From Ginglymostoma cirratum (taxonomy: Eukaryota), in contig JAHRHZ010000079.1 of NCBI GenBank assembly GCA_024137785.1, positions 11,650,896 to 11,714,895 of the forward strand: a stretch of DNA of 64,000 nucleotides, read 5' to 3'. Below are positions 6,401 through 63,462 of the stretch, in pieces. A program made the translations under genes and the position numbers. The stretch's first letter is position 1. Every line of letters starts with the position of its first letter. The notes under the pieces were generated by a model. That model was not told the origin of the DNA and made no database searches. It worked only from the letters and a program-made list of their open reading frames with translations.

Positions 6401-6638
6401 AAAATAAAAACCAAAAGAACTGCGGATGCTGTAAATCAGGAACAAAAACAAAGTTGCTGGAAAAGCTCAGCAGGTCTGGCAAAATCTGTGAAGGAAAAAA
6501 CAGAGTTAACATTTCAGGTCTGGTGACCCATGCCCAGAACCTTCTGAGGAAGGGTCACCGGACCCCAAACGTTAACTGTGTTTTTTCTTTCACAGATGCT
6601 GCCAGACCTGTTGAGCTTTTCCAGCAACTTTGTTTTTG
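6401..6638. mobile_element. Fold-back non-autonomous PLE derivative with 14-bp TSD
   Basis: Arms 6441-6539 and 6542-6640 are inverted (87/99 identical); flanking direct repeat ttatagtgctagac at 6387-6400 and 6639-6652; arm sequence matches the PLE terminus at 24090-24190. Confidence 0.85.
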
Positions 6639-6786
6639 TTATAGTGCTAGACGTTTGTATGCCCACATAACATTTTGAGAGAAGAGCGTTATTTTCTGAG
6701 GCACCTTTATTTGGTAAGCAGGAAAGGTTTTCATTGCTATTCCAATTGCTGCAAATGGAAGGGCAATGCTGCTTTAAAACAAGGAA

Positions 6787-7545: not shown

Positions 7546-8109
7546 GCCCTACTATTCAGCTGTCCTGCATCCCAGTACTGGAGAACAATGTTGGCATTCT
7601 GGAACTGAACAAGGAGAATTGCGTTTTGAAAGCATGCTGTATCTGCAGACACTTGGGTGAAAGTCAAGGTTTCATCAGTAAAGCTGGATCTCAATGGTCC
7701 TTGAAAAGACAAGGCCACTTATGATGAACAGTAAAGAAGCCTCATGAAGAGGAACAGCTCCAATCAATCACATAGTGTGTATGAACAGGAAATCCTTCAA
7801 TTTCTCAGCTGTCAGGGATGGGGAAATTGAGGGAGATGGTAGGAACAGGCTAATGATGGAAGAGTTTGTCTACTGTCTAATGAGATACGTAGAGATTGGC
7901 ATTGGCATTAATAACAAGATTGCAAATCATTGCTATGTTATATACTATATATATATTCCACAGTCAATCTATTATCCACCCAAAGGTGTTTCCCTAGTTA
8001 AGTCACCCCCCATCCCTTCCCCTGCAATATGTGTGCATTGGTGAGAACATTAGCTGGACCATCATAGCCAAAACCATATTTATGGCACCTTGTTTTCTGG
8101 AGCACTGAC

Positions 8110-11300: not shown

Positions 11301-11959
11301 CCTGCAACACAAATAAAAGTAAGTTTTTTTCCCAAGCCAGTGGCTGCATGACTAGAACTTTATAGATTGTTGACTACAGGCTGAATGATACAGGCAATCT
11401 CTGGGTTGCAAGCAGGTTCCATTCCTGAGTCTATTCACAGATTGACTTACACACGTGCAACTTACACGTTGCAAGACAATATAAAGCAGCCATTTGTATA
11501 TACAGGAAACATTCATGTTTCACATGTCTAAAATTACACTCTTGTATGGTTTCATGATTGTAAGTCAGGCATTTATAAATTGGAAACCATCTGTATCTCT
11601 CTGTCTGCACAAGCAACTACACTTTATGGAGCTGGTTTCTTACTTTCATACTCATCAACTCTGCTGAGTGTCATTCACAAAGGGGAATTAGGTCTCCGCT
11701 TCTGGCCAGTCAGCACGCAGCAGGGTCGGGATCTCAATAGGTGGGGCCAGGAGCAGGAACCAAACAAACAGCTAACCAATCAGTTTTTCGGATGGGAACC
11801 AAGGTGAGAAGTTGGGCGAGGGGTGGGGGAGAGGTTTATGCCTCTGTCTCACCAGCAGCAATGACTGAATCAAAAGTGAAAGTTAAAACTCTTAACATAG
11901 GCTGGTACTGCAATTACCAGTCCTGGGCATCCCCTATGCCCAGTCTTTGGTAACCTCAA

Positions 11960-14111: not shown

Positions 14112-15149
14112 AACATTCATAACAAGTGGTTATCTATGATATGACAAAGCTGATGCTTATTCCTGGGGTCCCTGATTTATGAATGTTACAGGGGTCCAAT
14201 TTTAAAGACCCAGCATATGAACGTTTCCTGTACTGACAAATGACTCCTTTACATTGACCTGCATTGTGTTCTGACATGCACACAAATCGACTTAAGAACG
14301 GACTCCAGAGTGGAATGTATCCACAACCCAGGGACTGCATGTATTTGCAAAGTCAATTTTTCTTGTATTTGGACATCTGAGACTCCCGTAAGCTCAGATG
14401 ATCCAGTCCAGGCCCCTTATCTAGTACATTATCAATGTCGAATGGAGACTTGGTGCCCTTCTCCTCTATCAGTCAGTATACTTGGCAACACTCATTTCGT
14501 GAAACTGACCAACTGGATGTAGTTTTTAGTCTATGTTATCAATACCTGCATTCTATAGGTTTCCCAATGTCCATTTCCAATCAGGTGGAGAGACAGGTTT
14601 TGTTTAATGTTGAGCTAGTTTGGGGAAAAAAAAAGGATGATGTAAATCTACTACCACTTCAAACATAACCTAAATAAGACAATTGAGACATTTTAATACC
14701 TAATTAAGTACAATGCCGGAACATTATTGTGGCCTTTGAAATAGTTGAGTGGGTGAAGTGTCCATTTGTGGTTCTCTATGTTTGTATAATTCTACTCTAG
14801 TCATAAATTTGAGAGACGGATTTCAAGCACTAAACTCCCTCTGCTTAAGTGAATGATGAAATGGCATTCTTTGTAATAAATCCTGCTGCAGCCAATACTG
14901 GAGATTCCACTACACTGCTACCACTTCTGGGATGCACTGCTTATACAGTTTAAGCAAGTTTGATGTGTGAGGATCCCCCTTGTTAACACCTCTACAAAGA
15001 AACACATCTGTGTTTGAATCAGTTTGAAAATGTCAGCCTGCCCTATTTAAGTCACAGATAGGCTTTAGCTTACTGAGAAATTCCAAGAGAAGTGAAATTG
15101 ATTCATCCTTGATGTCTCATCCTTGGGATTACAGCTTATACGGTTGGTA

Positions 15150-28148: not shown

Positions 28149-31100
28149 TATGGACCAATATTTTTAGTGAATCTTTATTTCTTAACGTCCTAAATATAAA
28201 TTTCCTAAATCTAGCTGCGTTCACGCAGGACCTCATTTACTCTAGAATGTGAGAAAGAATATTTCCAGTGTGAACACACAAAGCAAAAAGTCAATTTTCT
28301 AATTGGGGGAAACAAAGCAAGTACAGGTCTTGTTAGCTTAAAATCAGGAGGGAATTTGTGTAAGTTAATAAGTACAATTTTCATCGCGGTCTTGGTGCAA
28401 TGAAAGCAAGGAAATAAAACTTCAGACATTATACATTGGGTAAGCAATGACTCCACTGACTGAATTTTGGTTTGAGGGTGGAATACAGGAACTGGAACTA
28501 TTTCAAGGTCCTAAAACTGCCTTTGGGGATGGGGGTAGGCAGTCACTGTTTTCATCAAGGTGTCTGTTTAATATGAAGATAGGTTCCTTGTCCTATTCAC
28601 AATGGTGGATAGGCTCTTGAAACTGAACAGCCAATCAGAGGCCTTCCCGCTTCAGATCAACAACCAACTGCAGTAGCTTGAAGGGGCCTTATTCTCAGCA
28701 ATGTTTTGGAGAATTACATTTACAAATTTCTGAAAACAGCAAGGCAACCACTCTGGGGTTGGGGGAATCTCTCTGCAGCATAGTTTTTAGTTGCATCCCA
28801 ATTGAAGCATTAGGGGAGATTGTAGCCTTCCTGGAGCAGGGCTTTGGCCTTCAGCTGGGATGAGTTAATTGAATACCCCACCCTTACCCTTTCCACGGTT
28901 GCTTTTGCTTAACCTTACCAAGGGTCTTAGATATTCTTTCATATGCGTTATTTTTTATTGGTTTATCAGCTGAGATCATCCAGTCAGGAATATCTGCATC
29001 CTGCCTAAAATTGAGGGAAGATTGCAATTTCCTTATCCATTTTGATTTTGGTTGAATTCATAATTGACACAAGAAGCAGTTGACAGCTTTAATGATTTGA
29101 TTGCATTGTGAGCTCAAAATCCTAACATTTTTTAGCAATTTCATGTTGACCACTTACATAGTGAGCTAGATGTTCTGGGAGACTTGACTTGGTGCTGAAC
29201 TCGGTTTAAGGAGATTGATAACAATTGTTGTCGGACTATTGCTGCAGCTTTTGTTCCCTATTTGATTTTTTTTTATGGCTACTACTTTTCTGCATTTATC
29301 TGTTCCTGCTCCCTTTGAACCACAAGCCTGCATTTCTGCTTTTAGAAGGTCCTGGAAGAGGACTAACAGAGATAGGTCAGGCTCTTCCCAGGGTGATTAG
29401 AATTGAAGCACTGGTATACAGCAAGAGGTACAACTATCTCCCACTCACTGCAGGTGTGGTGTTCTGGAGGCTGAGGTGACCAGAGAAACTGTCGCAGAGC
29501 TATTTGGCATGTTGCAAGCAGACTGAGCTGATAACTGTCACAGGAGCTATTGTGAACACTAGACAATTAATTGTGCATAAGCATGAAATAACTCAGATGC
29601 ATTGTTTGCTGAAACGTCGCAGTGCATCTTCTAATTGGACTGTCGGATCAGTATCAGAATTTCAGGAATAAGAAATCACTTTTTTAAAATAATTTCTTTA
29701 ACATGGAGCTGAGTTGCAAATCCATTTTTGTGCCCAGGCAGCCAGTTGAAATCAATGCCAGATGCAGGCAGGAGACCATTCAGAGGAATTAGTTCATTAA
29801 GAGAATTAGATGGAGTAATCCATGTGGTACTTATTCACGAGGCCATTTTCCATCTTGAAAATACGCTCAATGCTTTAGCCCAAAATTCTTACACTTGCAT
29901 ATTTAGCAAGAATGATGCCCATTTCAATGTAATTCACAAATTCCTCATTCGTGCCACTCGATCTAACCTGCTGTTCAACTTTGTGAAACCCTGCAGAAAC
30001 ACAAACTGCAGTAGATAAAGTAGAATAGTGTCTGAACAAATGTTAATGACAATGGACCACTTTATTGTGGGAAAGAGAATATTTCTGTATGACTTTCCAA
30101 AATTAGGCATACTATTATAATTACAATAAATTGGGAATTCAGGCAGAATCTAAAAGAATAATAGACATATATGATATTTACAATAGAAGGACATGGGTAA
30201 AAATTGTATTGAAACATTTGAGAGATAATTAGATATATTTGGTGAAGAAAGAATAGATTCATAGAGAGATACAGTGAGAAGACGATGTTGAGATCAATGA
30301 ACGATAAAGGCAGGATTGTTACGCTGAAATGCCTGCTGTCCCAAAATATCCAAGGTTCCTCAGCCTACTTTGCTCAAGTGGATTTACTTTAATAAATCTA
30401 CGTGTCACCATATTCAATCCTGTTTTGGCACACCATATTTTGTTAGCACAACAGTGCTTCCCCTGTTGATTTTGATGCAGGGTTGTAATTCCTGTTTCTG
30501 TTACTCTTCATCCAAATTTCTGATATTGTAGACACTAAGAGAATTCATGTATTCGTTGTTCTAAAGTGTTTAATATACAGGGTTATTTCCCTGTATAGAA
30601 AAGAATAGAAAAGAAAACTTCAAGGCTAGATCTTTATTCATGAAAGAACAACATAACCTTGAATGTTTGGAACTTGACCAGGATTAGGTGTGGGTTTTTG
30701 TACAATTTTCCAAGGTTATTCCATAATTATAATCAAGTGTGCTTCCTGGAATCGGAGTTTCCACCAAAGCAGAAATTAGTCAGCTGCCAGGAAGGTAGAT
30801 GCACCCAGAAATTGAGTCAATTTTCAGGCAGGACCAATGGGCTGTGGTCATGAGCTAACTCTTCATTAGGGCATCACACTCACCTTGGGCTGGCATAATG
30901 CCAAGTGGTCCATCTGACATCCAAACCTGAAGAAGATTTCTAAGAGAATCCAGTCTCTGTGGAATGGGAAAAAAAGCAGGCAAACCAGTTTTGAAGAATT
31001 AGGAAAATATTCCTGCTCCTTTGGGCCATTCAGATCTCTTTTGGCCCAAGAACCAGCTGATATAGGCCACAGTGAGCACGGTCTGCACTTGGTTCAGTCA

Positions 31101-32089
31101 GGATCCTTTAGATGCCTAAGGACCCTGCTTTAAATGTTTCAAAGACCCCCTTCTACAAGCAGCGAGTAGGCCAGATTGCTATGACAACCCTGCAAAATGG
31201 TGAGAGCAACTATGATACCAGCAATAGGATATTCTAGTGGTCCATTTACCTGTCACAACTGTCTACTTTCTGCTGGTCAGGAGATATGAAAATTCAGTCT
31301 ATGGTATGGATTTGGATGTTTCTGGGCAACATGTTTGTGACTGCGTGGATATCTGCTGGCAAACGTTTGACAAACTTGGCACTGATCCACTGCATGGGAT
31401 GGTTGCAAATTCGGGAGCTACTGCATAACACCATCACCATGGGAGCAACATTACAGTGTGCCAAGTAATATACAGGGAAACACTTGAGGACTTATACTAT
31501 CACTGGTCAAAGACCCTCATGGCAACATACCGGCTTCATAATGGGAGATTAGCAGTAGACTTTAATGCAACAAGTAGTCTATCTCTGTATGTGACTATCT
31601 GTTGATCAGTAATCCTGCAAAACCATTCCTCACAATTATTCTGGCTATTTTGGCTGTTAACACCCTGGTCTGGTGTGATCTTCCTTCGTGCACGCCATTA
31701 AGGCTTAACACATTGGTGCTGCTGAAGATTCATTCAGTCATCACCAATTATTAGCGTGTCAGCAGTTCTCCTGACTTTCTGTAGGATGTGGAGTCTGTGC
31801 ACGCACTAAGCCTCTGCCAATGTGAGGCGTGTGTGTGTATCACATCTCTGTAGCAGCACAAATTAGGCCTCCCTCCCTTTGTCCTCCTCTTCCTTAGTAT
31901 CTATAAATCTGTCGCGGATAATTCTCATTGAGAATCCCATTGATGGCATTAATAGTATTGCAAGAAAAAAGAGAAACTAGCAGCAGGCCTAGAAATAAGA
32001 AAATTGGTCAAACATTTTTGGAATATGAATGCCAAATTCAAAGCCTATCCTTATGTTGGTGTTGGCAAGCTGCTGTCTTGAATTGCTAG

Positions 32090-32930
32090 AGTTTATGTAA
32101 TATAAATACGCCTACAACGCTGTTCAGCAGTTCTAAAATTAAGCCATTGACAGGAAAGGGAAAAGGTAATTGATATATTTCCAGGTGCAGAAAGCTGCAT
32201 GGTCTGGAGTGGAATTGCAGGGATATTTCCACAGGCCCTGCTGGCTTGTCTCTCTATGGGGTAAAAGTCATGGGTTTGCAAGGTGCTTTTGAAGGGCTTT
32301 GTTGAGTTGCTGCAGTGCATTTACACAGTGAATTTAACTACTCATAGGATACGCTACTGTACGGGCCTCTGGATAATAGACAAGAGTGTTAGCCTTCTTG
32401 AACTGAATGGCCAAAGTCAACCTCGATGATTGGTAGGGGTTAATATTGAAAGTCATACAGCTAGTGCCAATCAAATAGTCTACTTTGTCCTGGATGGTGT
32501 TGAGCGTCATTAGTGCAACATTCACTCGGCCAATTGGTAAGTACTCCATTGCACTCTTGACTTCTGCCTTATAGCTGGTGGACAGGGTCTGAGCAGTTTG
32601 GAGTAAGTTAATCATTGCAGTTTCCAGCTTCTCACTTGCTCTGGTCGCTATGATATTTATATGACTGGCCTAGTTCAGTTTTTGGTTAATGGTATTCCCC
32701 AGGATGTTAATGGTGGGGGAAATTAGAGATGGTAATGCATTTGAATACCGAGGCATAATTAGTGGATTCTCTCCTGTTGACATTTTGTTTACCTGAATGT
32801 TACTTGCCACTTATCAAACCAAGACTGAATGTTGTGGAGTTCTTGCTGCAGATAGGCACAGAGTTCTTTAGAATCTGAGTAGTTAGTTGATGCAGAACAT
32901 TGTGCAATCATTAATTAATGTCTGATCTTG
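32090..32930 (-). mobile_element. CR1/L2-group LINE fragment split by a ~95-bp foreign insert
   Basis: ORF 32334-32615 contains LSTSYKAEVKSAMEY...NTIQDK...LIGT; homologous to 36890-37060 and 38065-38620. Confidence 0.75.
32336..32418 (+). repeat. Diverged direct copy of 33985-34067, inserted in a LINE
   Basis: Ungapped hand alignment, 61/83 identical, offset 1649 bp. Confidence 0.9.
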
Positions 32931-33685
32931 CACTGATGTTGCAGAAACTTCTGCAATGACGTCCTTTTCTTTCTTTTGCCCTTCTACAAACTTAGCATAG
33001 AGCTGAAATTCCAGCAACCTTGGACATTAATGCTCACTATTCAGACCACAAGCTTTCTTCCTGCATGCACTATCCCTCTCCAGTATAAATATATCAACCA
33101 AGCTCCTGCCTGGTTCAACCTGAAAATACTCCTGGTGCTGAAACTGGCTGAAGATTAACTGAGGATGGTTCTTCAAACACTTTTCTGATCAGGTTTATCT
33201 GATTTAGATCTGTAAGCCAGGTGAAATCCTTTTATTTTTCTGTAACTCTTTGTGTATCTTAGATCAATGAAAAATCAATGAATAACAGCAAACTACCTTG
33301 TAAATTAGTTTATGCACAGATTGAAATTTGCAATAACAAAGCATGTCTGACTGACCACGATGCACTAAACAGCTTTACAGCATAGCACCAGCTACAATGG
33401 TAGTTGTGTTATCCTTGATTACATGGTTATGGGCGGAACAAAGAATTGCTGTGTAGTGCACTGTGCTATCCTGAATGATAAATCAAGACAAAATTGCTAG
33501 CAACATCTGCAATGAGTTGTATTTCTAAATTTTCTCACCAGGGGTCAGTAGTAGATTGGCCTTTTCTATCTAACATTATATCAAAGAGATTAACGGTTCT
33601 TTATCCCATCTCAGTGTTATTTAACTCTTATAATCATATCTAAATGAAAAGCTGGTTTACACATACCCATGTACATTGTTGTATA

Positions 33686-33770
33686 TTTTTCATTCTTTCA
33701 TGGGATGAGGCCATTACTGGCTGGGCCAACATTTATTGTCCATCCATAGTTACCCTTGAGAAGGTGGAGG
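33686..33770 (-). mobile_element. LINE/SINE 3' tail fragment
   Basis: Reverse complement of the tail at ~5005-5090. Confidence 0.75.
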
Positions 33771-33984
33771 AGTTTATAGGACTGTTTAGGTAGGATTCGT
33801 ACTGTAGTCAGTTAATCTTAGAGTCATTGTTTTTTTTGCCAGATTTTCCTCTTCTGTTCTGTTTCTTCCAGTAATAAAGTTATTTGGGAGTGAGCAGTTC
33901 TTTCAAACATGTAGTCCAGTGGGCATATGTGGGTAGGTTTGCCACTCTTGTAAAGCAGCACTAAAAACCACAACATTCTATTTG

Positions 33985-34067
33985 AACTACATAAAGGACT
34001 TGCTTCTGCAGGCACCTCAGAATAACAGTGAAGAGTATTTCCTTTCTTGAACTGAATGAACAAAGTC
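33985..34067 (+). repeat. Partner (presumed template) of 32336-32418
   Basis: Same alignment; shared 15-mer ttcttgaactgaatg. Confidence 0.9.
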
Positions 34068-34683
34068 TTACTTTGTGCTCGAGATTCGGTGCAGATCAAG
34101 AATTGAGGCTGTGATCATCTGTCTCTGTTTTGTTTTCTGTCCACAGGTCCATGATTTTTATTCACTACTTTGTTGGTAAAACTCATCTGTGTGTTGTTTA
34201 AAAAAAGGTGTTTCCCTGTTGTAATAGAGTTGTGTTGTTCTTAAACATCAAAAGCCAATTCTGATAGAACACATTTCTCTTGGTGCGTTTAAAACATTCA
34301 ATCACAAGCTTCCACTGATATCCATGAAGCAATTTCTTTCCCATCTATGATGTAATTCGATCATATTGATTAAATTATCCGTTTGTAAATCGATGCCAAA
34401 CATTTTCAGCAAAAATGAATGCTGAGTCAAATTTTGTAGATATTCATGTCCACCAACTAAATGCTAATTTGCCCAAATGTTATTCATTGAGGTTATAAGT
34501 TCATGAGCAGAGTTATGCATTCAATTGCAAAATAATTGGAGAAAATGAAATTCCAATACATATACATATTTTCCAGCAATAGACAGGTTAATATTTCATT
34601 AGCCCAACTGTTGTTTGTTTTATCTTGTTTCTTCTGTGCCAGAAATGTTTTAATTGAGGAGATTTCTGGGATGTACTGAATGT

Positions 34684-36889: not shown

Positions 36890-38620
36890 TTGGGCCCATA
36901 GATGGCAAGTAACATTCACTCCACATAAATGCCTGACAGTAACCATCTCCAATAATGGAAAGTATAACCACCTCTTGACATTTAATGGCATTATCATCAC
37001 CAAAACCTACCACCATTAATATCCAAAGCTGTAATCATTGACTAGGAGCTTAAATGGACTTTCTTTCTTTTCAGATACCATGGCCTCAGAAGGTGGTTGT
37101 GATAATTGACTTTGTTATGACTAGATGAGGAGAGGGTATCTGTTCCCTCTTGTTAAACCCCCTCTTGACTGGATGAAACAAATATATTTCTGTTAGTTCA
37201 CAGCTATCACACTTCACTTAAAGCTCAATTAACCAGTTTAAAAAGCAGGGACCAAGTCCAAGCTTTCATTGAGTGAGAAAATGAAAAACTGAATTATCTA
37301 TTAAAACTGAAAAAAAATCATAAAATGTAACATCAAATGCAGAAAATAAGTATAAAAATGAATAGGGATGGGGGAGTAAGTATGTAACAAACAGGCAAAT
37401 AAAAAGTTTAAAGTCCTTCAGTTGAAAGAATGAAACCCAAGTCCACAGCTGTTCAGCTGTTCTCTTATTTCTTCAGCAGTGGCAACATTTGCAGAATTCT
37501 GGAGTTCCTGGTGAATGGTCATTAACCCAAGTTGCTTTTTCATTGGACACATCTTAAGGGAGGTAATAAAGCATAGAGAGAAAGTTCAAACCTTACAGGT
37601 TCTGTGGTTATGAATCAATTCCTCTTTCTCTGCTTTGCCAAGAAAGCTACTGAAATATGGTTTATTTATATATTCCCAAGTCTAACTTCATTGTCCTTTC
37701 AAGCTGGATACTCAGCAGGCAATCTTCTATCTCCCTATTCTTGATCTTGCCGCAGGAGTATGAATTAAACAGGAGATGCAAATTTCTTATTGTTGTCCTA
37801 TTTGTCTGGTTTCACAGTCTTTGGATGAAATGGTCATTTCAGTGCAGTCGGTTCAATGTATCCCACATGGGATCCATTCACTTGTCTCACTCTGTGGTCA
37901 GGTAACCATAGCAGCCAGTTTGGGTCAGTAATTTTCTTTCTAAAAACCCTTTAGTTTGTAAAGGTCTCAGATGCTAAAACCTAATGATGGGAGTTGAATA
38001 TTAATAGTCCATGTTACCATTACATAAAAGCTTTCATGAGCTTGATCCATGATTATCGTTGGTATTTACTTGGAAATGACACATTGGTACTGTGAATGCA
38101 AGACCAGGTAAGAGGCAGCATATTCTGTGCCAAGTAGCTCAGCACCTGGCTCCCTTTCTATTGTTTGCAGGACGTAAGTCTGGAGTCTTACGGAATGTTG
38201 TCCTCTTGCCTGAATGGGTGCAGCTCGAACAATACTTACCGAAATTTGACACCATCCAGAAGAAAGTGGCTTATTAGATTGGCACCTGTCCAGCACTGGT
38301 AGACTGTAACTACAGGACATATCTTCTAAAGATGCTCTGAAGCAAGTTGTTAAGCTGCTTCTCGACCACATCACAAACTGGTGACACCTTCCACCTTGAA
38401 CAGCAATGCAGTTAGCGCATGGCAATGCCACCACCTTCACGTTCCCCTCCAAGATGTACACATCCTGATTTGGAAATTCATTGTTACTGTGTCAAAATTC
38501 TGAAACACCTCTTTACAGTGGAGTGTCTTCACCACATGGACTGTCCTGTCTAAAGAGGTATCTCCCCTCTAACTTTTGAGGGCAATGAATGCTGGTGTTG
38601 TCAGCGATGCAGGCATCCCC
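36890..38620 (+). mobile_element. CR1/L2-group LINE (36890-37060 plus 38065-38620) split by a ~1-kb LTR-like insertion (~37092-38040)
   Basis: WQVTFTPHKC in the first part; KFDTIQKK and the shared 3' tail in the second; the insert begins tgttatga. Confidence 0.65.
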
Positions 38621-56822: not shown

Positions 56823-56898
56823 GAGGATTCACTAGACTGTAGTTACCTTCAGTTAAACATTTTTAAATTTCTGCAGTGATTTCAGAAATGCTGTCATC
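56823..56898 (+). repeat. Partner (presumed template) of the inverted copy at 57408-57483
   Basis: Ungapped hand alignment with the reverse complement, 64/76 identical. Confidence 0.92.
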
Positions 56899-57169: not shown

Positions 57170-57840
57170 TTGGTAGTGGTGAGCTGTCATCTTGAAAACA
57201 AACTGCAGCCCATGCTGTGCATGAACAATGCTGTTAGAAAGGGACTTGCTAGATCTGTTTGAAATCTATCCCATTCAGCACGACCACACAACACAATGGA
57301 GGGTTTCCTTGATATGAAGATGGGATTTTTGTCTCAACCAGAACTGTGCAGTGGCCCCTTTTATTGATAATGTCATGGAAAGATACATCTACAACAGAAA
57401 GATGGGTGATGAAAACATTTCTGAAATCACAGCAGAAATTTAAATCTGTTTAACTGAAGATAACTATAGTGAAGCGATTCGTCCAGGAGGAGGTAAAGTA
57501 CATATTTCCCTTTGTTGTTCCCTCCCATCTATTGTGGACCCAGTCTACCAATCTTTAGATCTCAGTCACTAGTGGTGCTACCAAGATATTTTTGGTATAG
57601 ACATTCACTGAAATCATCCAGAGTACATTCTGTGCCCTTTCCACTCTCATTGCATCCTCCAGATAGAGGAGAACTCCTTCATCAGTTGAGAGGAGAGGTG
57701 AGTGGCAGTAGATGGTACTATGCAAGAGGTATTTTTTGCCCATATTTGACCTGATTTTATGAGACCTCATGAGGTCCAGAGTCAATATTGAAATCTCTCA
57801 GGTCAACTCACTGCCCACAATATGCCACTGTACCACCCTG
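57170..57840 (-). mobile_element. CR1/L2-group LINE, deleted copy (3' tail joined to endonuclease region), split by a 76-bp insert
   Basis: 57172-57247 is tail-like; ORF 57555 shows RVERAQNVLW (cf. AQNVLWVGDFN). Confidence 0.65.
57408..57483 (-). repeat. Diverged inverted copy of 56823-56898, inserted in a LINE
   Basis: Ungapped, 64/76 identical; shared blocks cttcagttaaaca, tttaaatttctgc, gtgatttcagaaatg. Confidence 0.92.
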
Positions 57841-59122: not shown

Positions 59123-60649
59123 AAGAAATGCATGTTCACTTAGTCAGGGGGACATTTACAAATACATACGGGCTTCGACTTTTTTTTAAGTGAGAAAGTT
59201 CCAATACATGCCCTATCCATGATCAATACAGAATACGCACCAGGGACTGGGGCTTTATGTAAAATTAAACACTTGAGATTTGAGGTATTGGACACATAAC
59301 TCATGGATGGCATGAGTGGTTGTTTTAACTGAGTGAAAATAAACACAGACAAACGCACACACACACGTACATATAACTTTTGGCCTGCCTTTTCAAACGT
59401 GGAGCAAACCTATAGGCATGAATGTGGTTAGAGCTCAAAAGCACAACACTGACTGTAATCATGTAGTGTGATCCTGCGTTATCAGAGGAGGGGCTTGAAA
59501 AGAATAAGCATTTCTGACATGTACTCTATATGTAGCTTCTGCAAAATAGTATAAGTGACAAGGAAGCCAGAACATGCCAATTAACAATATAAATCTAAAA
59601 TCAAACAAACAAGGATCACGCTGTAATATTTAGTATAAGTTTATGGTGTGAACATTAAGCTATATATTTTTGTTTCCTTTTTAAGTACTTCTAAACATGT
59701 AGTAAATTGCTATTGTTCACTGTTTCTGTTTCAGCACTTAATTTTAGCTTTCATCTGGACATTTTTGCGTTATGTGTTCAAGGCTGATAAGCTACAATCA
59801 GCACATAGCCCAGGGCGCATATTGCAGAACGTTTAAACCCACTAAAATATGATTAAAATTTATACTTTGCCTATTGTTTAAATTTTAATACCTTGCTTCA
59901 GCTCTCAGAATGACCTTCATGCGTAGCCTTTACTAAAATAAGATGTCACATGGGTGTTTAGTTTTAAATTATCCTGGTCTAGTAAAAGTTATCACAGTGT
60001 AAAACAAGAATAAAAGATCAGAATAGAACTTAGAAAGAGATGGAAAAATGATGGGCCTTGCACCATAAATAAAGTATTATACATATTTTCCTAATACTGC
60101 CTTTATATCTTAGAAGTTGTTGCTAACTGAGTATCTTTGGTGTAAAATTTGCCATGGCACAGCAACAAATAGCACTTTGCTCTAAAATAAATCTTGCTCA
60201 TTTGATATCGGCAATATGGGATAGACCAATGGCCTGAGGAGTGACAGATGGAAGTTAATTTACATAAATGTAGGGTACTGCATTTTGGAAAGACAAATCA
60301 GGGCAGGACTTACAAATTGATGGCAAGGGCCTTGGGAGTGTTTGTGAACAAAGAGACCTGGAAATGCACGTTCAGAATTTCTTGAAAGTGGAGTCACAGG
60401 TAGATAGGATGGTGAAGAAGGCATTAGGTAATGCTTTCCTTTATTGGGCAGTGCATTGAGTATAGGAGCTGAGAAGGCATATTGTGGCTGTACAGGACAT
60501 TGGTTAGGCCACTTTTGGAATACTGTGTGTAATTCTCGTCTCCCTGTTATAGGAAGGATGTTGTGAAATTTGGAAAGGTTCAGAAAAGATTACAATGATG
60601 TTGCCAGGGTTGGAGGGTTTGAGCTATATGGACAGGCTAAATAGGCTGG

Positions 60650-61532
60650 ACAGCATCAGAGGAGCAGGAAAGCTAATGTTTTGGGTCTGGACCCTTTTTC
60701 AGAAAAGGGGGAGGAGAAGGAGGTTCTGAAGTAAATAGAGAGAGGGGGAGGTGGTGATAGAAGATGGATAGTAGAGCAGAAAGGTGGAGAAAAGGCAGAC
60801 AGGTCAAGGAGACGGGGATGAAGCTAGTAAAGGTGAGTGTAGGTAGGTAGTGGTGGGGATTGGTCAGTGAGGTGGGAGGAGCGGATAGGTGGGAGAGAAG
60901 ACGGACTGGTCAAGGAGGCGGGGATGAGAGGGAGATCTGGTCTTGGGATGAGTCGGGGGTGGGGAGATTTTGAAGCTCGTAAAGTCCATATTGAGACCAT
61001 TGGGTTGTAGGGTTCCAAGGCGGAATATGAGGCGCTGTTCCTCCAGCTTCCAGGTGGCATCGTTGTGACACTGGAGGAGGCCCAGGAGTGGGAGGGGGAG
61101 TTGAAGTGGCTCGCGACTGGGAGGTGTAGTCGTTTGTCGCGAACTGAGCATAGGTTCTCCACAAAGCAGTCTCCAAGCCTCTCGTCCCCACCTCCTTGTC
61201 CTGTCCATCTTCTCTTCCACCTATCCACTCTCCCCACCTCACTGACCAACCCCCAACCCAACTTCCTATCTACACTCACCTTACTGGCTTCATCCCCTCC
61301 TCCTTGATGTGTCTGTCTTCTCTCCACCTATCTGCTCCTCTATCCACCTTCTATCACCACCTCCTTCTCTCTCTATTTATTTCAGAGCCCCCTTCCCCTC
61401 CCCCATTTCTGAAGAAGGGTCCAGACCTGAAACGTCAGCTTTCCTGCTCCTCTGATGCTGCCTGGCCTGCTGTGTCCATCCAGCTCCACGCCTTGTTATC
61501 TCAGACTCCAGCACTGACAGTTCCTACTATCT
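60650..61532 (-). mobile_element. 5'-truncated Penelope-like element with GIY-YIG C-terminus and inverted terminal repeat; 13-bp TSD
   Basis: Minus ORFs give RLGDCFVENLCSV...PVASHFNSPSHS and LGLLQCHNDATWKLEEQRLIFRLGTLQPNGLNMDF; ~61180-61480 is an inverted copy of ~60650-60965; ctaaataggctgg at 60637-60649 and 61533-61545. Confidence 0.92.
61405..61440 (+). ncRNA. Minimal hammerhead ribozyme motif, intact core and weak stem I
   Basis: CTGAAGA (61409-61415), stem II gggt/acct, GAAAC-GTC (61429-61436). Confidence 0.6.
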
Positions 61533-62639: not shown

Positions 62640-63220
62640 GAGCAGGGAGTCAGGCAGGCCAATCTTCTCTCACCCATGCAGGCTTATGCTAAGTGAGAGT
62701 AGACCATGAGGATGATGTAAGTAGAGTTAACCGAGAGATGTGGCTGCGTCACAGGAAGATATAGCATGTGAAATAAAACAACACACTCATAGTCAGAACA
62801 AAGAAATTGCTCAAGACTGTGGAAGGCCTGGTCAAAAGAAAGAGAGAATATTTTTGGAGTGGAACATAAATGAGGCAAGGATCAAAGTTATGGCCCAAAA
62901 TGGCAATGGAAAAATCAACATTAGAAGTACTAAGATAGAGGCAGTAAACAAAAGCATGTATTTGGTTTCAACGATAAATACAAAAGTTGCATCCAAAAAT
63001 GAAATCCAGGTTAGAAGTAACAAGAAGCATGACCAGTGACTTAAGATCCTTAAAGAGAAACCATCTCATACAATTACTAGTGTGCAATGTGGCACTCAAT
63101 GGATGCAAGAGTTGGATTCTAAAGAAACAGGATGAGAGGAGGGTACCAGCTTTTGAAATATGAGCCTGGCAAAGGATGGTCAGGATCCGTTGGATGGGCA
63201 GAAACAGAAATAAGTGGAAA
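62640..63220 (+). mobile_element. RTE-clade LINE RT relic, second subfamily
   Basis: GVRQANLLSP; ORF 62740 NINEARIKVM...IEAVNKSMYLVSTI...EIQVR; GCKSWILKKQDERRVPAFEI. Confidence 0.8.
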
Positions 63221-63225
63221 CGCAC

Positions 63226-63462
63226 AAAAACAGAAATTGCTGGAGAAACTCAATAGGTCTGGCAGCATCTGTGGAGAGAAAACAGAGTTAATGTTTCAAG
63301 TCAAATGACCATTGTTCGGAACCCTTATGACAAAGGGTCACTGGATCAAAAAGTTAACTCTGCTTTCTCTCCACAGATGCTGCCAGATCTGCTCAGTTTC
63401 CTGAGCAATTTCTGCTTTTGTATGTTTCAGATCACCAGCATCTGCAGTTCTTCGTTTTGTTA
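63226..63462. mobile_element. Fold-back non-autonomous PLE derivative, older than 6401-6638
   Basis: Arms ~63226-63320 and ~63325-63420 are inverted copies of the PLE terminus. Confidence 0.8.

Follow-up and report, generated by a model that had tools for sequence, protein, structure and literature searches.

A decayed LINE copy in Ginglymostoma cirratum is interrupted by a diverged 86-nt copy of nearby DNA, and the two copies most probably (at a rough probability of 0.78) represent a repair-mediated duplication followed by long neutral decay. The pair lies in a stretch of 64,000 nt of contig JAHRHZ010000079.1 (GCA_024137785.1), hereafter the window, whose own numbering is used throughout. 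The inserted copy, or acceptor (32333-32418, plus strand), matches its presumed original, or donor (33982-34067, plus strand, same orientation), at 63 of 86 positions (73.3%; E 1e-6 in a self-BLAST within the window), with 1563 nt between them and an offset of 1649. An earlier sequence-only reading had aligned 32336-32418 with 33985-34067 without gaps at 61/83 identities, and had sorted the differences into 10 transitions, 11 A<->T/C<->G changes and one other transversion; recomputation returned the same figures, and the 86-nt version adds one transversion (10, 11 and 2 among 23 differences). The ungapped alignment was also favoured by a pair-HMM with realistic gap rates (posterior 0.76-0.94). 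That the absence of gaps is exceptional could not be upheld: the probability of no gap is about 0.11, and 13 of 23 other ungapped segments of at least 75 nt in local repeats, which are not mutually independent, are at most 78% identical. The differences are spread over the codon phases (7/7/9) and are unclustered (7 adjacent, 6.1 expected).

Within the window, the match appears to be confined to these two copies. The acceptor was the sole HSP over 33800-34250 when the window was compared with itself, and the donor overlaps no other window repeat; thus, its description as unique holds inside the 64-kb window, and genome-wide it would presumably be single copy as well. A profile built from both copies gave no convincing evidence of a third within the window; its best remaining match (7570-7610) covers 41 nt of the right half of the pair (E 0.012, 11.7 bits). 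This score was equalled in 1 of 40 shuffled windows and the corresponding diagonals hold only 37-39/86 identities, so the similarity is probably due to chance. No tandem repeat was found over either copy.

The acceptor lies within a LINE on the minus strand. The 111-codon stop-free frame that ends in the acceptor matched three proteins (P0001-P0003), which tblastn placed on the minus strand from 32750 to 32047, flanking the insert on both sides; in agreement with the sequence-only reading, LINE homology is thus collinear and in the same orientation on either side. The part upstream of the insert (32419-32829, minus strand), corresponding to the C-terminal region of ORF2, is matched by P0001 at 32750-32457 (48% identity, E 3e-23) and, in nhmmer, by the copies at 38287-38099 and 37087-36884. 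The downstream part (32017-32332, minus strand), comprising the ORF2 end and 3' region, is matched by P0002 and P0003 as far as 32047 and, in nhmmer, by the copy at 5079-4773. Both parts are heavily decayed. The named relatives are predicted Heterodontus francisci proteins that contain stretches of host LINE sequence, and an Atlas cluster (cosine 0.95) bears the name 'RNA-directed DNA polymerase from mobile element jockey-like'. Collectively, the two-sided tblastn homology, the Heterodontus francisci relatives and the cluster name identify the host as a dead LINE, presumably of the CR1/L2 type. In the annotated horn-shark proteins P0004-P0006 (isoforms of JMJD8, the prostacyclin receptor and cationic amino acid transporter 4), such stretches are either exonised fragments or annotation errors.

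The surrounding DNA is vertebrate-like (GC 0.40, CpG observed/expected 0.24) and rich in decayed repeats. It contains no tRNA and no long intact gene, the longest stop-free frame in the window being 196 aa, and the window may lie within an intron. In a crude splice-site scan, 21 rows were obtained, but neither copy of the pair carries any of them; the best-scoring candidate exon (30884-30956, minus strand, 73 nt) has strong splice acceptor and splice donor sites. The repeats include a large inverted arrangement of LINE-end fragments at 60614-61493, with arms 85-86% complementary.

Neither end of the acceptor bears a TSD, a poly(A) tail or a TIR, as the sequence-only reading had stated. No 5-mer is common to the two ends, the terminal 4-11 nt hold at most one complementary match, and the longest A or T run in the acceptor is 3. 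A retroposed insert (TPRT, class 1 TSIP) was rejected on the lack of a TSD of at least 5 bp and of a poly(A) tail, and a DNA transposon or MITE on the lack of terminal inverted repeats and a TSD. Between the protein anchors, the window holds 121 nt, compared with 17 codons (51 nt) in two homologues; these 121 nt are made up of 86 nt matched to the donor and 35 nt of LINE remnant, with 16 LINE nt missing overall. About 7 LINE bases may have been lost where the insert entered, plus about 10 at another position a few bases off, an estimate that derives from back-translation of two homologous proteins rather than from a DNA consensus and is good to a few bases. The window LINE copy at 38099-38458 was discarded as an empty-site control, being over-decayed and shorter at the junction.

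At the right junction, the LINE flank (32422-32434, plus strand) resembles the right flank of the donor (34078-34090, plus strand) in 12 of 14 columns, a similarity matched by 0.8% of 3000 random 30-mers with gap costs picked post hoc; the left flanks show no similarity. The resemblance may mark the microhomology that primed copying, or the duplication may continue here with gaps. Additionally, a perfect 7-bp inverted repeat with a 3-nt loop, identified by folding and sequence, spans the right boundary of the donor (34060-34076). The acceptor match stops inside the loop of this hairpin and the second arm is missing from the acceptor, which could reflect a later template switch in the donor or the end point of copying.

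The divergence of the two copies can be set against that of the host. The acceptor-donor distance (K2P 0.33 +/- 0.07) corresponds to about 0.17 substitutions per site per copy. The host LINE shares 49-55% amino-acid identity with three of four homologues and 39% with the fourth, values that in simulation imply roughly 0.3-0.4 substitutions per site or more, and at the DNA level it shares 58-72% identity with other window copies. The insert therefore postdates the host LINE, and the greater age of the host means that the 27% divergence can be explained without error-prone copying. The sequence-only reading had proposed a template/variant pair made by error-prone templated copying: the copying of nearby DNA into the LINE stands, the error-prone step is dispensable, and a likeness to DGRs fails on the lack of a single-base bias, a target gene and an intact reverse transcriptase. 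With the pedigree mutation rate of 7e-10 per generation given in PMC10587355, the pair and the older LINE copies would be implausibly old; hence, only relative ages are used here.

These features agree with a class of duplications described by Pace, Sen, Batzer and Feschotte in 2009 (PMC2671141). In their 824 human cases, the donor lies within 5 kb (on average 1.2 kb off), inserts measure 50-619 bp, no poly(A) is present and, in primates, divergence is near the neutral rate; the junctions carry 1-15 nt deletions, filler or 2-9 nt microhomology. Cases were also found in mouse, rat, dog, cow, chicken and zebrafish, and were attributed to SDSA repair. The survey called for the same TE in the same orientation on both sides, with consensus positions within +/-30 bp, an insert of at least 50 bp and a donor match of at least 50% identity, and further for a donor more than 50 bp but less than 5 kb off, no poly(A/T) tail of 5 or more, an insert found at one other genomic place and an empty outgroup site (PMC2671141). 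Here, minus-strand LINE sequence stands on both sides, with 35 of 51 nt left between anchors that were defined by protein homologues rather than a DNA consensus. The insert measures 86 nt at 73% identity, 1563 nt separate the copies, and no A or T run exceeds 3. The junction has a deletion of about 7 nt by back-translation, a length inside the published 1-15 nt range, and flank similarity on the right side only, in sequence too decayed for exact breakpoints. Judged by sequence, all that the window allows to be compared thus appears to be matched or compatible.

Under this reading, a double-strand break would have occurred in the germline inside an already dead LINE copy, one broken end would have invaded DNA about 1.6 kb away, possibly primed at the right flank, and about 86 nt would have been copied. 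The copied strand would then have returned and joined the other end, through either an SDSA-like process or a polymerase-theta-type templated insertion, with the loss of about 7 LINE bases at the junction. Both copies would subsequently have mutated independently, and presumably neutrally, to a difference of 27%, the insert having no function. Insertions of the polymerase-theta or SD-MMEJ type copy flanking DNA into a break, primed by microhomology and accompanied by a small deletion; their inserts are mostly shorter, and their templates closer, than in this pair.

The pair can be compared with several known systems. As in the duplications of Pace et al. (PMC2671141), a TE is interrupted by a copy of presumed single-copy DNA from less than 5 kb away, within the size range, with a small junction deletion, possible microhomology, no poly(A) and, presumably, neutral divergence thereafter; unlike them, this pair is older (27%) than the tabulated primate cases, is rich in A<->T/C<->G changes, is known as two copies within the window only, and comes from a shark genome, no cartilaginous fish appearing in Table 3 of that paper. 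The 'doublets' of Thomas et al., as cited in PMC2671141, are likewise short local two-copy duplications proposed to derive from imperfect break repair, but those surveys took identical or near-identical copies below 100 bp, whereas the present copies are 73% identical. Class 2 TSIPs (PMC5110952) share the lack of a TSD or poly(A), the junction microdeletion and microhomology and the role of a break patch; in contrast, they are described with a distant template and a proposed RNA intermediate, whereas here the template lies 1.6 kb off and the event looks ancient.

A second pair in the window was found in a search for local two-copy matches. Its inserted copy, at about 57410-57483, repeats 56823-56896 in inverted orientation over 74 nt without gaps, at a distance of about 0.5 kb, and the two differ at 12 of 74 positions (84% identity). 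The flanks of the 57.4-kb copy translate as one continuous reading if one base is shared, and we take them to resemble the end of a LINE endonuclease domain; support for a host repeat there comes from weak tblastn matches only (57173-57289, E 0.006-0.02). This copy appears to interrupt a decayed LINE cleanly, making the pair a candidate repair-mediated duplication. Its similar anatomy was counted in favour of a repair origin for the focal pair, and suggests that the duplication process is common in this DNA. Elsewhere, an inverted two-copy match between 11388-11546 and 14187-14344 (65% identical, 39 of 55 differences being transitions) was not counted as a repair duplication; its ends resemble what we presume to be a remnant of a Tc1/mariner-type DNA transposon.

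Alternatively, both copies could be remnants of an old interspersed repeat that lacks annotation, with one remnant having inserted into the LINE and lying near the other by chance. An identity of 73% is typical of old TE pairs in the window, and the weak match at 7570-7610 could be taken as a third member. However, that match is within reach of shuffled sequence, as described above, and the acceptor has neither TSD, TIR nor poly(A). Local duplication would predict just this, namely only two copies in 64 kb, separated by 1.6 kb, and the longest frame of the donor (96 aa) had no protein relative among the proteins of 52-168 aa searched. An interspersed repeat is thus improbable as the source of the pair.

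The repair capture could also have been strongly mutagenic. In this scenario, the same base would have been placed opposite the template base (A opposite A, G opposite G), so that the acceptor would have been divergent from the start and marked by A<->T/C<->G changes. The sequence-only reading had contrasted the differences with transition-dominated decay, and comparison with local repeats bore this out in part. The A<->T/C<->G share was indeed in excess (11/23, compared with 19-21% in 54 local TE alignments; 45% was reached by none of the 43 alignments with at least 10 differences). The low share of transitions, on the other hand, proved unremarkable, since the probability of 10 or fewer is 0.06-0.15 relative to local TE pairs, though 0.02 relative to inverted-repeat arms, both nulls consisting of repeats and not of unique shark DNA. 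Among the sources of such arms are two palindromic elements of about 200 nt (6441-6640 and 63217-63428; arms 88% and 84% complementary), which consist of head-to-head copies of a short repeat and served only as a substitution null. The nominal P for the focal excess is 0.001-0.015 for a statistic chosen post hoc. Three explanations for it were rejected: sequence context or CpG effects (context-matched expectation 4.2, 11 observed), micro-inversions (best gain 2 matches in 4 nt), and hidden compensating indels (with pair-HMM sampling, the expectation falls from 11 to just 10.6-10.9).

The second pair, found after the hypothesis was set, partly repeats this pattern. Its A<->T/C<->G changes make up 6 of 12 differences (P 0.006-0.05 alone), giving 17/35 in the two pairs pooled when about 6-7 would be expected; under a generous null, P is 0.015 for the focal pair, 0.05 for the second and 0.0015 for both. 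Additionally, the inserted copies of both pairs carry 2 CpG and both donors none, and in each pair the differences lean away from the presumed priming end (P 0.08 each). The 17/35 share and the restriction of CpG to the inserted copies were counted against neutral decay. However, 4 of the 6 A<->T/C<->G changes in the second pair fall in its first 17 columns, where an alternative reading has one 5-nt gap and without which the count is 2/6, and clustered changes are not independent events. The split of transversions in both pairs (17:4) does not differ from that in local inverted-repeat arms (13:5; Fisher P 0.71). The CpG count of the acceptor (2, with none in its partner), correctly reported by the sequence-only reading, is not remarkable either: 134 of 744 tiles of 86 nt hold at least two. 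Age alone covers the total divergence. No eukaryotic repair polymerase is known to err at 10-25% per base. Donor and acceptor in the cases of Pace et al. also diverge near the neutral rate in primates (PMC2671141). Each pair further contains one tandem difference, GC/AA or GA/TT, with the product of the polymerase-zeta type (pattern described in PMC7253413) in the donor; in the focal pair (GC/AA), this one case weakly suggests that the donor, too, changed after duplication. A strongly mutagenic copying step is therefore decidedly improbable, and the A<->T/C<->G excess is best described as a weak unexplained residue, partly replicated in the second pair.

Nearby sequence that had been copied, mutated and inserted here in silico, or through misassembly, would likewise lack gaps and could show a flat spectrum and undecayed CpGs in the insert, as expected of random in-silico mutation and as seen in the second pair too. 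Against this, the junction appears to lack about 7 LINE bases, with no overwriting of the LINE, the right flanks are similar, and the tandem change is of a germline type (PMC7253413), while misassembly would give near-identical copies, not copies at 73%. No match to phage or plasmid sequences was obtained for the acceptor, the plasmid collection having been searched with the acceptor only, and an exact 22-base motif was absent from 185,579 prokaryote genomes. The donor gave 9 partial matches at E 0.4, and a prokaryotic or phage origin was rejected. Altogether, an artefact or engineered insertion is very improbable.

DGRs alter template adenines only and combine a target gene with a reverse transcriptase (PMC3521204). 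The present pair resembles them in consisting of two nearby, ungapped, diverged repeats of about 100 nt, close to the roughly 120 bp of DGR repeats, and in that the acceptor ends a long stop-free frame. Unlike DGRs, it lies in vertebrate DNA and shows no adenine-specific changes, target ORF or intact reverse transcriptase. The sequence-only reading was right that the changes are not adenine-specific: in each copy, the differing sites include all four bases (7T/6C/6G/4A and 8A/7T/5C/3G), a base-specificity test that refutes the DGR-like alternative. The 111-codon frame consists of decayed LINE ORF2 that reads on into the insert, not of a target gene with a variable repeat, and no intact reverse transcriptase was found nearby. 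No Pfam family was detected at E 0.01 in the 49 distinct frames scanned, which represent part of the 95 frames of at least 80 aa. Coding or exon duplication was rejected, as neither the codon phases nor the synonymous changes are biased; whichever of the six frames is read, 16-18 codons are changed and 2-3 of the changes are synonymous. A structured RNA or riboswitch-like pair was likewise rejected, with no Rfam match at gathering score (three chance-level matches in 32000-34500), no fold more stable than shuffles (z -0.6 to 1.8), and compensatory pairs numbering 0/13 and 1/10. Diversification of a target protein, or conservation as a functional RNA or exon pair, thus has a negligible probability.

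Repair-mediated duplication with subsequent neutral decay is therefore the preferred reading of the focal pair, and its setting may be compared with other vertebrates. Among the literature matches listed, which leave most subscription journals outside their scope, none dealt with repair-mediated duplications in sharks or with a complement-type signature of repair synthesis. Two candidate duplications occur here in 64 kb, and Pace et al. give densities of 0.08-0.65 per Mb of TE DNA for other vertebrates (PMC2671141). A bolder generalization would be that break repair in the shark germline copies nearby DNA with a bias toward same-base mispairs, leaving patches that are born mutated, with A<->T/C<->G changes and fresh CpGs, and that are far denser than in other vertebrates; we regard this as quite unlikely. 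Were the excess to recur in many pairs and be assigned to the acceptor branch, it would point to an undescribed mutagenic signature of germline repair synthesis. Taken by itself, the pair matters little, adding a further scar of repair to a class already described from ten vertebrates, now extended to a shark and to greater age. However, two candidates in 64 kb suggest that shark genomes may keep many old repair-mediated duplications, which could provide neutral clocks outside TE families.
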